From a virus (Duplodnaviria > Caudoviricetes), in the IMG/VR virus record IMGVR_UViG_3300029305_005387: a DNA stretch of 64,000 bases; one strand, 5' to 3'. Below are positions 23,435 through 58,677 of the stretch, in pieces; position 1 is the stretch's first letter, and the number at the start of each line of letters is the position of its first letter. Below the pieces are notes generated by a model. That model had not been told where the DNA came from, did not search any database, and saw only the letters and a program-made list of their open reading frames with translations. The position numbers and the translations under genes were made by a program.

Positions 23435-24865
23435 TTAGTACTGAGAAATTTGTTCGTTAATAGCCTTTTCTGCCTTGGTGACAAGTTTCTTGAATTTTGG
23501 ATTATTATTCAATTTAGTAATTCTCTGTAATAGTGCAGCTTCTGTCTTCTTATTCTGTTTAGCAACTTTCTTTCGTTCAGACTGTTGCATATTTTCAGTA
23601 GTCATATTCATCTTACGACGGAGTTCCATAACATTAATACCGTTGGACTCCATAAGTTTAAAGAATTCTTGAAGTTCTTTATCTCCATATGTCATATAAC
23701 GTTCACCAACAGGTCTCTGTTTAGCAATCTCTTCACTAACCACCAAATCATAGATAAATACGTCATCATCATTAGCCCAAGATCCATCGAATCGAAGATC
23801 ATCCCAGAAACTCTTCTCTTTCTTTTCAGGTTCAAAGATACTATTTGTAATTAACATAGTTCTAGGTGTATAACTATCACCCTCTCTATTGTTAGGATTA
23901 CTTTGAATCTTTCTGAGCATATCATGAAGACTTTCTTTAGCATATCTTTCTTTCTTACTAAGTTTCTTATTTTTCTTCTTAGAATTGAATGTCTTCCTAT
24001 CATAACCTTTAATCATTCTAGGTTTGATATCTTTAACTTTCATTTCAGGAGGAGAATCGACATTGTTCTGTAGGTATTCGGCCTCTTCAAGAGAAATAAG
24101 TCTAAAGAATTTATCTTCTTCAGATTCTTCTTCACATTCTTCTTCACATTCAATATCGTCGAATTGATCATACCAACTATCATATTGTTTCTTTGGATCT
24201 TCTTTTACTAAATCTTTTGGATCTAATTCTGGATTAGAAATATAATTGATAATTAAATCCATATTATATTTATCTAATCCTTTCATTCTTGGCATTATAA
24301 TAGAATTAGAATAAATAAATCCATCTGAAACCATTTCAAAAAATCTTTCTTTGCTATGCATATAGTTATCTTTAGATTCTAATAACTCCCATGCATCTAC
24401 AACTACTCGCATAGCTTCAATGTACTTATCAATCTGACGATATGTTTTCTTTAACCCATTGAGTTTCATTCGAAGTTCAGCCAATGTATCATTCTTTACT
24501 CTTTCTTCATCACTGATATGATATACATCATTTTCACCATAATCATGTACTATTGTAGTTTCACATGATTGGCGAATTGCATTCATCTCACTCTCAGTGT
24601 ATTTATATTCTCTTCTTTTCGTGTAACGTTTGAAATGGACATCTTCCTCAATTTCTATTGGACCTGTCGGAAGTACAAATCCATTTTCATCTGCCTCACC
24701 TTGATCTTGTTTCATTTTTACAATTTCACTACTTGTTAGGAAATCTTCATTATCTTCATCATCATAATTATATGAATTTCCAATAGTAGATGAATCTCCA
24801 AATGCTCCAAACAAAGCTTCTTGTTCGATCAAATCTTGATATTGTTCAAAAGTACTTTTAGCCAT
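23435..24865 (-). CDS. Hypothetical protein (476 aa)
   Basis: Long ORF with RBS; ATATATTAT at 24904-24912. Confidence 0.75.
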   Translation of the reverse strand: MAKSTFEQYQDLIEQEALFGAFGDSSTIGNSYNYDDEDNEDFLTSSEIVKMKQDQGEADENGFVLPTGPIEIEEDVHFKRYTKRREYKYTESEMNAIRQSCETTIVHDYGENDVYHISDEERVKNDTLAELRMKLNGLKKTYRQIDKYIEAMRVVVDAWELLESKDNYMHSKERFFEMVSDGFIYSNSIIMPRMKGLDKYNMDLIINYISNPELDPKDLVKEDPKKQYDSWYDQFDDIECEEECEEESEEDKFFRLISLEEAEYLQNNVDSPPEMKVKDIKPRMIKGYDRKTFNSKKKNKKLSKKERYAKESLHDMLRKIQSNPNNREGDSYTPRTMLITNSIFEPEKKEKSFWDDLRFDGSWANDDDVFIYDLVVSEEIAKQRPVGERYMTYGDKELQEFFKLMESNGINVMELRRKMNMTTENMQQSERKKVAKQNKKTEAALLQRITKLNNNPKFKKLVTKAEKAINEQISQY

Positions 24866-46599: not shown

Positions 46600-47325
46600 T
46601 TATTCAAATAATTCTGCAGATGTTTTTGGCAAAATATAAGTAGGTGTAACAAGATCTGAATGTAGTCCCATTGATAATAAAAAGGTATTGACAGTATTAA
46701 GGGTGATTTTATTCGTAGGAAGATTCTCTAATTCATCCAACATAACATAACCTTTATCAGCAATACTTTTATTCATTTGACGTTTCATAACAGGGTCATC
46801 TGATCTTGGTCCATGAAGTTCTTGAAGAATTTTATCTGCTCCTAAAGCAACAAGCATTGATGCTTCGATATCACTATCTCTAGCATTCTTATCTTTATTA
46901 ACAACCTGACCTGTTAATGCAGATGTCTTTTCATTAGAAGTAGATAGTCCATTCTTCTTATGCAAAAGTTGTTGTGTACGTTTAACGTTAATATATCCAA
47001 CTAAACACTTCTCTTTAGAAACAACCACTCGTTTTTTGTCCATAGTTAAATGAGGCATGTATATATATTCCATGAGTGGGAATCCAATTACTTTAGCAGC
47101 TTTTTCACAATATTCCATTTTTAGATCATGTTCAAATTCTACTATATCTAATGAGAAATTTTCATTCTCATCTTTTAAAAAGTCTTTCATAAACTTTTCA
47201 AATTGTGTGTCATTCATATCACTAAACATAGCCCGATATTTATCACTATTAGTCCCAGATGGATCTAATGCATCAAATGTATCATAAATAAGTTTTTCAA
47301 TATAAGCACGATTAGTTACAGCCAT
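46600..47325 (-). CDS. Split phage RNA polymerase beta subunit, C-terminal part (likely virion RNAP)
   Basis: VGYINVKRTQQ, ALTGQV, DIEASMLVALGADKILQELHGPRSDD align with RpoB GYMYMLKL...[26 protein letters not shown]. Confidence 0.85.
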   Translation of the reverse strand: MAVTNRAYIEKLIYDTFDALDPSGTNSDKYRAMFSDMNDTQFEKFMKDFLKDENENFSLDIVEFEHDLKMEYCEKAAKVIGFPLMEYIYMPHLTMDKKRVVVSKEKCLVGYINVKRTQQLLHKKNGLSTSNEKTSALTGQVVNKDKNARDSDIEASMLVALGADKILQELHGPRSDDPVMKRQMNKSIADKGYVMLDELENLPTNKITLNTVNTFLLSMGLHSDLVTPTYILPKTSAELFE

Positions 47326-57097: not shown

Positions 57098-57107
57098 CCT
57101 ATATTAT

Positions 57108-57184
57108 GGGCCTTTAGCTCAGTTGGTTAGAGCATCCGGCTCATAACCGGACGGTCCCGGGTTCGAATCCCCGAAGGCCCACCA
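57108..57184 (+). tRNA. tRNA-Ile2 (CAT)
   Basis: Canonical cloverleaf GGGCCTT...AAGGCCCACCA, loop CTCATAA; acceptor resembles Firmicute Ile2 rather than Met. Confidence 0.9.
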
Positions 57185-57193
57185 TTAATATCA

Positions 57194-57303
57194 AAGTCAC
57201 ATACAGCAACTAATAAAACAAAATTGCTTATAGCTTCATGAGTTCGAATCTCATACTATTAAACTTTAATAGTTATCCAAGTGGCCAAAGGAACAAGTGA
57301 CTT
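57194..57303 (+). ncRNA. Circularly permuted, anticodon-less tRNA mimic (YrlA Y-RNA-like topology)
   Basis: Order T arm, loop-closed acceptor stem, D arm, all enclosed by AAGTCAC/GTGACTT. Confidence 0.75.
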
Positions 57304-57321
57304 ATGGATATATTAAAATAT

Positions 57322-57406
57322 GCCGGTATGATGGAATTGGCAGACATGACTGACTCAAAATCAGTTTCCATTAGGAGTAGCGGTTCGAGTCCGCTTACCG
57401 GCACCA
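57322..57406 (+). tRNA. tRNA-Leu (CAA)
   Basis: GCCGGTA...TACCGGCACCA, loop CTCAAAA, long variable arm. Confidence 0.93.
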
Positions 57407-57409
57407 TAT

Positions 57410-57485
57410 GCGTCTTTAGCTCAGTAGGAAGAGCAATGCACTTTTAATGCATGGGTCTGGAGTTCGAGCCTCCAAAGACGCACCA
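57410..57485 (+). tRNA. tRNA-Lys (TTT)
   Basis: GCGTCTT...AAGACGCACCA, loop CTTTTAA. Confidence 0.93.
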
Positions 57486-57745
57486 CTTCTCCGTATCGTG
57501 GGAGATTAATAAAATACACGAGCATCTTATATCAGTGAATAAGATGAGCCCAGTAAAATCTGACGTAATACCAAGCGGTATGAATGTAGTAAATAATCGG
57601 GGCTAATCTCTATAGTGATATAGAGCAGTTCATAAGAGAACGGGCTAAGATTAGCGACCTTAGTCGAATATTATTAAACCTTAGCACTCCTCGTGCGAGA
57701 GGCATCCTAGCCACAGGGAGTTGGAAGGATGAAAAAAAAGAGGGC
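57486..57745 (+). ncRNA. Unassigned multi-hairpin structured RNA
   Basis: GC-enriched non-coding stretch with about nine stems, between tRNA-Lys and a terminator. Confidence 0.5.
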
Positions 57746-57749
57746 AATT

Positions 57750-57795
57750 AATAAATTACCCAGAGGAGCTATGATGCTCCTCTGGGTAATTTATT
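57750..57795 (+). terminator. Terminator of the tRNA/ncRNA cluster
   Basis: 20-bp stem, 6-nt loop, T tail. Confidence 0.75.
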
Positions 57796-57819
57796 TTTAC
57801 TAAAAGGAGGGATTAATTT

Positions 57820-58677
57820 ATGTTTGAAGGATTCAATAATCATGAAAAGAAAACAATCGCAGATGTTATTATGTGGACAATTCATCACGATGTAATTTCA
57901 TCCTCATTAATGATGAAAACTTTTCAAATTGAAAAATTCGTAGCACAAAGCACATTGGAGATGTTGTCTAAGATTGAAGTAATTGAAGAAAATGATCAAC
58001 AACCGGAACTGTATTATGTATTAATTAATGAGGTAGAAAACTTACTTCCAGAAGTTTTAGATCTTCTCATTAATTGTGATTATAGTTTATCTGATATTAA
58101 GAAAGCCGTACAAGGTGTACCTAAAGAAGAAAAATATGTTTCATCAAATATCTTATCTGATAAGAGTAGAGATTGGATACCATTCAATGAAACTAAACCA
58201 AAACTAAATACACCTATACTGATTCGTTTTACGGATGAATCTACCGTATTAATGGAATCCAAAACAGAAATCGTTTATTCTGAGGATTTAAAAATTGCTA
58301 TGTGGGATGGTATAGAATTCCATATTATGGCCCCATATCCTAAGTATGATTTTAGTCCATTATCAAATAAAGAATATTTAAATGATGGAGTATTTGTAAC
58401 ACACTGGTCCAATATTAATAGGAAAGATTTGGAAGGATGGCAGACTCGTTTCAATCCTATCAATAAATATAAACATTTGGAATTATCTGTTTCTAGAGAA
58501 CAAGAGGAGGAGGTTTATAAGGCATTAATTCTTGCAGCCGCCTGCATCATGCGAACTGTGAATGATTGTGCTGCTAATGATCCTACTAGAGATAAACTAG
58601 TAAAGGCTCATTCAGTTATGTGTGATCTTCAAAGTGCAATTGACTATGGTATAATTCAAAATTCGGAAGGAGAATAA
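57820..58677 (+). CDS. FtsK-gamma-like winged helix plus DUF551-like domain
   Basis: ISSSLMMKTFQIEKFVAQSTLEMLSKIEVI...VLI; WIPFNETKP...VTHW. Confidence 0.55.
   Translation: MFEGFNNHEKKTIADVIMWTIHHDVISSSLMMKTFQIEKFVAQSTLEMLSKIEVIEENDQQPELYYVLINEVENLLPEVLDLLINCDYSLSDIKKAVQGVPKEEKYVSSNILSDKSRDWIPFNETKPKLNTPILIRFTDESTVLMESKTEIVYSEDLKIAMWDGIEFHIMAPYPKYDFSPLSNKEYLNDGVFVTHWSNINRKDLEGWQTRFNPINKYKHLELSVSREQEEEVYKALILAAACIMRTVNDCAANDPTRDKLVKAHSVMCDLQSAIDYGIIQNSEGE

Follow-up and report, generated by a model that had tools for sequence, protein, structure and literature searches.

A permuted tRNA-like RNA on a stem-plus-ACAGCAA handle in the tRNA operon of a phiKZ-like gut phage, a probable partner of a Ro60-like protein

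Background

Ro60-Y RNA particles occur in animals, in some bacteria and in a few phages. We asked what kind of RNA is encoded in a short spacer of a phage tRNA operon in which the parts of a tRNA stand in an unusual order. The spacer lies in IMG/VR record IMGVR_UViG_3300029305_005387, of which a stretch of 64,000 nucleotides (nt), called the window below, was analyzed. The window is phage-like, with ~31% GC, and its source is a phiKZ-like goat-gut jumbo phage. An earlier note, made from the letters of the window, had described positions 57194-57303 as a circularly permuted tRNA mimic without an anticodon, similar to the YrlA Y RNAs of bacteria.

The element occupies 57188-57311 of the plus strand (~125 nt) and is a real, structured small-RNA gene. 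On the sequence evidence it is probably a non-coding RNA gene of a family that shares a closing stem and the word ACAGCAA, in which this handle carries a permuted tRNA-like body and the RNA acts as a Y-RNA-like partner of a phage Ro60-like protein.

Results

Predicted structure of the element

From the ends inward, the element consists of a two-tier closing stem, an unpaired AU-ACAGCAA segment, a T arm, a sealed hairpin, the dinucleotide U8-A9 and a D arm. The minimum free energy (MFE) fold of the spacer recovered all helices (z = -2.2), and all 33 base pairs of the element are Watson-Crick, in a sequence that is AT-rich. The T arm, the TA dinucleotide, the D arm, the terminal helix AAGTCAC/GTGACTT and the unpaired AT-ACAGCAA were all found where the earlier note had placed them. 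The acceptor hairpin that it had located at 57255-57273 is also present, with 8 bp and a 3-nt loop instead of 7 bp (ACUAUUAA-ACU-UUAAUAGU as RNA, acceptor pairs 1-3 being U-A, A-U and A-U). Its TTG/CAA stem is possible, yet incompatible with the AGCAA/TTGCT hairpin favoured by the fold. An outer helix, ATATC/GATAT (57188-57192/57307-57311), was additional to its feature list. Between the outer and the inner helix stand a single A in the 5' strand and AUG in the 3' strand, and the ends of the element pair as a 12-bp two-tier helix; the scaffold reads outer stem, inner stem, UACAGCAA, and U-AUG ahead of the 3' strand of the outer stem.

By direct reading, the nucleotides of the tRNA elbow are all present: U8, A14, G15 with C48, G18 and G19, T54, U55 and C56, A58, and the G53-C61 pair. 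An anticodon loop and a CCA end are absent from the sequence, as had been claimed. Sequence and fold model together show a body that would form a tRNA elbow with no anticodon and no chargeable end. The 3-nt loop with its A-U closing pair would make opening of the acceptor end by RNase P less likely than in the YrlA of M. smegmatis, where loop cleavage and CCA addition have been observed. A minus-strand reading of the element was rejected.

The handle RNA family

The earlier note had proposed a distinct Y-like class, and its 'unpaired ATACAGCAA' proved to be the signature of a separate family. We define this family by a closing stem of 6-10 bp whose 5' strand is followed, after 1-2 nt, by an unpaired ACAGCAA, and the element fits the definition (AAGUCAC-AU-ACAGCAA ... 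GUGACUU). Further copies of helix and ACAGCAA, for which a search had been suggested, were not found in the window beyond the element itself, and 581 kb of relatives contained no module; control words gave 1.6 matches per 645 kb. Salmonella phage Felix O1 (NC_005282) has four unannotated modules in its tRNA cluster (23872-23944, 24039-24102, 24493-24566 and 24580-24710). In the fourth the parts follow one another as handle, ACAGCAA, variable (V) hairpin, T arm, sealed acceptor stem, U8, D arm and handle. RNAalifold, applied to seven Felix-type copies, recovered the handle, the T arm, a 7-bp acceptor-like stem and the D arm, with compensatory changes.

Three models were used: R1, made from the single sequence of the element; R2, a covariance model of the seven Felix O1-type modules only; and R3, a covariance model of 60 diverse IMG/VR modules, the element being left out of both R2 and R3. 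The best match of R2 in the window covered exactly 57194-57303 at full length (29.7 bits, approximate E 1.6e-4; next best 14.7 bits), and was obtained with filters off, the default filters missing it. R3 placed its best match on exactly the same positions (56.2 bits, approximate E 2.5e-9), and its runner-up at 23.1 bits is a tRNA-Leu/tRNA-Lys dimer artefact. R1 had module 4 as its top match on Felix O1, at only 12 bits, and no match in the relatives of this phage. In the model-fitted alignment of the element with the Felix type, the handle, T and acceptor helices are each kept through four two-sided changes.

A search of IMG/VR with the pattern TACAGCAA-N25-55-GTTCGAWTC gave at least 118 matches. 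A module was counted as well-formed when a handle stem was present together with a T stem that pairs and a sealed hairpin directly next to the T stem; among the matches listed this held for 36 of 83 (43%), in 80 viral loci, and most of the 36 continue into an obvious U8 and D arm. In prokaryote genomes the same pattern gave well-formed modules in only 1 of 80 loci, nearly all matches being due to chance, and therefore the criteria are specific and the family is mainly viral in this sample. Exact and near-exact patterns on the D arm of the element returned nothing, or ordinary tandem tRNAs.

R2 found 60 modules in those viral loci, at 28-70 bits and often several per phage. In the 60-module alignment, which was fitted to the model and hence favours pairing, the proportion of paired cells was 99.4% in the handle, 99.6% in the T stem and 98.1% in the acceptor-like stem, compared with 35-47% in slid controls. 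All 7 pairs of the acceptor-like helix covary, and two-sided changes occur at almost every pair of the family. In two more phage lineages the stems of the modules differ in sequence and complementarity is kept. These alignments indicate that the structure is selected in the family. The handle family is missing from Rfam 15 and from the GenBank/RefSeq annotation of Felix O1, and a search of open-access papers and preprints gave none that deals with the ACAGCAA handle or with phage DUF2828.

In four IMG/VR loci (L145, L140, L185 and L128) three or four handle modules of the permuted-tRNA type are clustered in a stretch of a few kb, which suggests sets of different tRNA-shaped bodies on one type of handle. 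As a separate observation, viral contigs of ~100-173 kb (L025-L028) encode an 85-nt tRNA with anticodon GCA (Cys), e.g. L025 1261-1345. Its D arm is of the Tyr type and its variable arm is long, which is unusual for tRNA-Cys.

A Ro60-like protein encoded with the family

Directly 5' of the four Felix O1 modules lies open reading frame (ORF) 42, whose product matches DUF7788 (E 3e-43) and DUF2828 (E 1e-28). In two other phage lineages, with DUF2828 proteins 30-40% identical to that of Felix O1, modules likewise abut the gene. Co-occurrence was assessed on loci chosen by the RNA pattern alone, which left 35 viral loci with a well-formed module. A DUF2828 homologue was encoded within a few kb of the module in 17 of the 35; 16 records from the remaining 18 loci were searched, and 12 of these had the gene elsewhere (7/8 when records at least 90% complete are considered). 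Overall, a DUF2828/DUF7788 gene was present in the same record for 29/35 module loci, some of them near-duplicates and thus representing fewer independent lineages, vs 0/11 control phage records, of which six come from relatives of this phage and five from phages rich in tRNAs.

The Felix-type protein was modelled with AlphaFold from a 43-sequence alignment (predicted local distance difference test 82, predicted template modelling score 0.81). The 13 best PDB matches of the model, which extend over its full length, were structures of Ro60, Rsr and phiLo Ro60 (from a Thermus phage), and a plain sequence search of PDB with the same protein gave no match. The link to another protein of the TROVE/vWA type that had been suggested for the element is supported at the level of the family, which co-occurs with DUF2828/DUF7788, a protein whose model matches Ro60. 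A DUF2828 profile run against 5.8 billion proteins had more than 4,500 matches, and among the matches listed none was tied to this phage. Because of the co-occurrence statistics of the family, a DUF2828 gene is likely to lie elsewhere in this genome.

We also considered that the element is a functional handle-family RNA that works without a Ro60-like protein, either as a free decoy or competitor for host enzymes that recognize tRNA shape (e.g. RNase P, the CCA-adding enzyme or tRNA-cleaving defence nucleases) or with some other handle-binding protein. Its place inside a tRNA operon, in a window with no DUF2828/DUF7788 gene, would fit this explanation, as would the 4 of 16 searched module-bearing records without a DUF2828 gene. 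The Class I RNAs of social amoebae are likewise designed as a stem plus a motif, and for one of them association with the RRM protein Rnp1A was shown (PMC7919456). Two of the four gene-less records are likely false module calls, the segment after the hairpin not being D-arm-like, and the other two are only 25-33% complete, while co-occurrence is otherwise near-complete. We regard this alternative as rather unlikely.

Relation to YrlA, tRNA and other RNA families

No Rfam family matched the element, either at gathering thresholds or at E 10 in a 141-nt search. The scan for YrlA and tRNA that the earlier note had proposed is included in this result: the YrlA model RF02553 (gathering threshold 69 bits) did not match, and neither ARAGORN nor the Rfam tRNA model RF00005 found a tRNA at the element. 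The only YrlA match in the region, at 14.8 bits, falls on the tRNA-Leu/tRNA-Lys junction and was dismissed as a dimeric-tRNA artefact of the kind against which Chen et al. 2014 warned (PMC4201824). The Class I model RF01414 did not match either, and the element is 110-125 nt long compared with 42-65 nt for that class.

The order of T, acceptor and D parts that had been called YrlA-like is the V-T-AS-D order of YrlA (variable-like, T, acceptor-like stem, D; PMC4201824), and the tRNA tertiary nucleotides are as in YrlA. That the element is a genuine Y RNA of the YrlA type and the partner of a canonical TROVE Ro60, of phage or host, is very unlikely all the same. GNCGAA(N0-1)G, which in YrlA lies in the 5' strand of the closing region and probably contacts Ro60, is absent from 57185-57240, where the sole UCGAA is the T loop, and none of the GNCGAA motif, the short acceptor-like stem and the 4-bp D stem of the YrlA consensus is found in the element. 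The remark that the terminal helix does not resemble the usual Ro-binding helix was correct in this respect; the handle is of a different, well-defined type. A TROVE gene, for which the earlier note had advised a search, was found neither among the 53 window ORFs nor in five relatives. The element is not a YrlA member.

Another explanation is functionless debris, either the 3' half of a decayed tRNA gene with the 5' half of the next one behind it or the outcome of an intron or homing-endonuclease rearrangement; remnants of two decayed tRNA genes had been named as an objection from the start. Relatives do have broken and intron-split tRNA-Leu genes beside an HNH-like ORF, and dimeric tRNAs mimic the T-then-D order and give weak scores with YrlA-like models. 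In remnants of this kind one would not expect 'acceptor strands' that form a perfect 8-bp hairpin with a 3-nt loop, Watson-Crick pairing in 33 of 33 pairs despite the AT-rich sequence, or a stem with an ACAGCAA handle. The element has no CCA though the three neighbouring tRNAs encode one, and on the family model it scores 56 bits vs at most 33 for tRNA dimers. The objection is at odds with the sealed hairpin, with the handle and with the model matches, and we give debris a slightly smaller chance still than a YrlA-type RNA.

A permuted tRNA gene of the kind known from Cyanidioschyzon merolae, whose product would be circularized or ligated to give a decoding tRNA, can practically be dismissed. 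The circularly re-permuted sequence was called a tRNA by ARAGORN, but only at 90% of the normal threshold. The joined ends give a 12-bp two-tier helix and no 7-nt anticodon loop, the CCA is missing, a loop of 3 nt seals the acceptor end, and no RNA ligase gene was found among the window ORFs. A permuted intron-exon or circular tRNA was rejected as well, the flanks being only 3 and 10 nt from the neighbouring tRNAs, and so was a transfer-messenger RNA (tmRNA), for which ARAGORN made no call and the CCA and the G3-U70 pair are missing.

Genomic context and relatives

The window encodes phiKZ-type head proteins, gyrase A, an NAD-dependent ligase, NrdD and PPK1. ARAGORN and Rfam place three plus-strand tRNA genes in the region, all with an encoded CCA, and the element fills the 137-nt spacer between tRNA-Met and tRNA-Leu, with flanks of 3 nt and 10 nt. 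Coordinates are collected in Table 1.

Table 1. Parts of the element and features of the surrounding operon (positions in the window)
Feature	Position	Strand	Basis
TATATTAT box, candidate phage promoter core of the operon	57100..57107	+	Pattern search; directly 5' of tRNA-Met
tRNA-Met(CAU), encoded CCA	57108..57184	+	ARAGORN; Rfam, 68.3 bits
Outer closing stem, 5' strand AUAUC, pairs with 57307-57311	57188..57192	+	MFE fold, sequence
Handle stem, 5' strand AAGUCAC, pairs with 57297-57303	57194..57200	+	Fold; aligns to the family handle helix in the models
Linker AU and unpaired ACAGCAA, the family-invariant word	57201..57209	+	Same layout in Felix O1 and other DUF2828-linked modules
Variable-arm-like hairpin AGCAA/UUGCU, 14-nt A-rich loop	57205..57228	+	Fold; overlaps ACAGCAA, i.e. 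an alternative fold
T arm, 5-bp stem ATGAG/CTCAT, loop UUCGAAU	57238..57254	+	Sequence, fold, both model alignments
Sealed acceptor-like hairpin, 8 bp (ACTATTAA/TTAATAGT), loop ACU, no spacer to the T stem	57255..57273	+	Sequence, fold, R3
U8-A9 (TA)	57274..57275	+	Sequence
D arm TCC-AAGTGGCCAAA-GGA, 3-bp stem, 11-nt loop (A14, G15, G18, G19, A21)	57276..57292	+	Sequence; aligned to the family D arm
Linker ACAA, handle 3' strand GUGACUU (57297-57303), internal loop AUG, outer stem GAUAU (57307-57311)	57293..57311	+	Sequence, fold, R3
tRNA-Leu(CAA) 57322-57406 and tRNA-Lys(UUU) 57410-57485	57322..57485	+	ARAGORN, Rfam
Hairpin UUACCCAGAGGAGC / GCUCCUCUGGGUAA then U run, likely operon terminator	57756..57798	+	Sequence; hairpin in Rfam alignments

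The genes flanking the operon keep their order in jumbo phages of IMG/VR, with protein identities of 55-78%. These relatives have ~535 bp where the window has ~1,430 bp, and therefore the whole tRNA operon is an insertion relative to them. The two complete relatives (292 and 289 kb) had no element by three tests, no tRNA operon, no TROVE gene and no DUF2828 gene, and searches of viral and metagenome contigs with the neighbouring genes gave no relative at 55-78% with the tRNA operon. One 95%-identical fragment (L006) ends before the operon site. A BLAST search with the operon against GenBank phages matched the tRNAs only.

Contigs from other samples and studies carry a near-identical element, with a lone change, 57210 C>G, in the loop of the AGCAA/UUGCU hairpin. 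Contigs that share the identical neighbour protein are 99-100% identical and for this reason gave no covariation signal. In the contigs of one other study 22 of 283 positions differed between 56850 and 57132 (~8%), and from 57155, in the 3' part of tRNA-Met, to 57820 there were 2 substitutions and 4 small indels in 666 nt (~0.3% diverged). This step at tRNA-Met suggests a recombination boundary or a hypervariable leader. Strain contig L017 has a double compensatory change in the anticodon stem of tRNA-Met (UC to GA at 57135-57136, GA to UC at 57150-57151), inside a 99.3%-identical stretch. The RNA sequencing runs contained at most 5% of the words of the stretch, too little to judge expression.

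In the tRNA cluster of relative G001 (L016 ~5040-4130, minus strand) a 5' fragment of tRNA-Leu is followed by a zinc-finger/HNH-like ORF, and a second tRNA-Leu is split in the anticodon region by a long insert resembling a group I intron. Between tRNA-Lys and the terminator of the window lies a non-coding, GC-richer stretch of ~260 nt (57486-57745) with no Rfam match. One piece of it, 57669-57709 (AAACCUUAGCAC..GUGCGAGAGGCAUCCUA), recurs directly 3' of tRNA-Met in G001 (47098-47139), and two relatives have another (~57609-57643) at several sites.

The TATATTAT box at 57100-57107 is a putative promoter of the operon. Boxes of the form TATATTAY occur at 24 sites in the window (e.g. 6732, 18164, 24904, 29273, 39369, 43305, 49922, 55190 and 57100); the total is at chance level, and the majority lie just 5' of gene starts, a placement as expected for a phiKZ-like phage promoter core.

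Discussion

On the reading that we consider probable, a handle-family RNA with a phage Ro60-like partner, the element would be transcribed inside a tRNA-Met/element/tRNA-Leu/tRNA-Lys operon, from the box at 57100-57107 to the hairpin at 57756-57798. Maturation of the tRNA-Met 3' end would set the 5' end of the element, and RNase P cleavage at 57322 the 3' end of its precursor. The two-tier closing stem and the single-stranded UACAGCAA would form the handle. Because of the genomic co-occurrence and the similarity in fold, we propose that the handle is bound by a phage Ro60-like DUF2828/DUF7788 ring, as the stems of Y RNAs are by Ro60. In the body, the T arm, stacked on the sealed acceptor-like helix, would together with the D arm make up a tRNA elbow. 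Speculatively, the particle might then present a tRNA look-alike to shape-recognizing enzymes and either tether them to the ring or act as a decoy for them.

Several observations weigh against this reading. No DUF2828/DUF7788 gene stands beside the element or among the ORFs of the 64-kb window. In the preferred fold AGCAA of the motif pairs with UUGCU, which hides part of the supposed binding word. The region 57155-57820 is nearly invariant among strains, and conservation is not specific to the element. The E-values of the models are rough, and dimeric tRNAs reach up to 33 bits with R3. Finally, the covariance model and covariation that the earlier note had called for were obtained with other phages and hold for the family, not for this locus, of which no diverged orthologue was found.

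A wider interpretation, which we put forward only tentatively and judge improbable on balance, is that the handle serves as a universal adaptor by which tRNA-shaped baits, each replaceable by another, are mounted on a viral Ro60-like ring. The bait of the element, with no anticodon and a sealed acceptor end, would capture or recruit a specific host factor that reads tRNA shape, for which a defence nuclease that cleaves tRNA, RNase P, the CCA-adding enzyme and PNPase come into question. If true, it would amount to a programmable particle for phage counter-defence or RNA repair, with a handle design common to the Class I RNAs of social amoebae.

With this element, the plan of a closing stem and a permuted tRNA body is seen also on another type of handle and together with another family of Ro60-shaped protein. 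The handle family is abundant in viral contigs. The element would also place a module at a distance from its protein gene, within a tRNA operon that a phiKZ-like gut phage has acquired. Felix O1 grows on laboratory Salmonella and thus allows a direct test of what a tRNA-mimic Y-like RNA does.

Comparison with known systems

The closest counterpart of the element is module 4 of Felix O1, which has the same order and spacing from the handle through the D arm; the model derived from modules of its type finds the element. Every stem sequence of the Felix O1 modules differs from that of the element, their D arm is of the GUG-UAAUGGUAG-CAC type, unlike that of the element, and they do not have its outer stem and AUG internal loop. 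The Felix O1 modules lie directly 3' of the protein gene, whereas the element has no such gene in the 64-kb window.

Permuted tRNA genes of Cyanidioschyzon merolae and two-piece tmRNA genes share the gene order of the element, the T arm and 3' acceptor strand standing before the 5' acceptor strand and D region. Their products have an open, CCA-bearing acceptor end, with an anticodon loop or a tag reading frame. In the element, by contrast, the acceptor end is sealed and has neither a CCA nor a G3-U70 pair, and an anticodon loop is absent.

The dictyostelid Class I RNAs (RF01414) share with the element the design of a stem and UACAGCAA. They have a short terminal stem and a motif of 11 nt, which we take to be CCUUACAGCAA and of which UACAGCAA is part. 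RF01414 gave weak full-length matches of 15-20 bits, all below the gathering score, on the three short Felix O1 modules. Class I RNAs are eukaryotic and have no tRNA-like insert, and their lengths of 42-65 nt and the association of one of them with Rnp1A were reported by Kjellin et al. 2021 (PMC7919456).

A phage-encoded pair is known from Thermus phage phiLo, whose Ro60 and RNAs Yrl1 and Yrl2 were shown to bind and to engage the PNPase of the host (PMC12135203). The likeness lies in a phage ring of the Ro60 fold with phage partner RNAs, phiLo Ro60 being among the top fold matches of the DUF2828 model. Yrl1 and Yrl2 differ from the element in their stem-bulge-stem structure with a CGAA motif, and a tRNA-like domain is unmentioned in the text (PMC12135203); the protein differs in being a recognizable Ro60 homolog, its structure deposited as a TROVE domain. 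A ROT/TROVE protein, which in cells acts together with a tRNA-like partner, is also encoded by some jumbo phages (Iyer et al., PMC7824862).

With YrlA (RF02553), the tRNA-like Y RNA of bacteria and phages to which Ro60/Rsr binds, the element has in common the closing stem, the optional V hairpin, the T arm, the sealed acceptor-like stem-loop and the D arm, the conserved tRNA tertiary nucleotides and the lack of an anticodon loop, as well as, by association at the family level, being encoded in a genome with a Ro60-shaped protein. It differs in having stem, 1-2 nt and ACAGCAA as its handle instead of GNCGAA(N)G, in the acceptor-like stem, which has 8 bp where the Rfam consensus has ~5-6 bp, and in the D arm, whose stem is of 3 bp and whose loop is of 11 nt. 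The family protein, moreover, is DUF2828/DUF7788 and not Pfam TROVE. The element is a further variant of the Ro60/Y-RNA kind, with another handle and another family of Ro60-shaped proteins.
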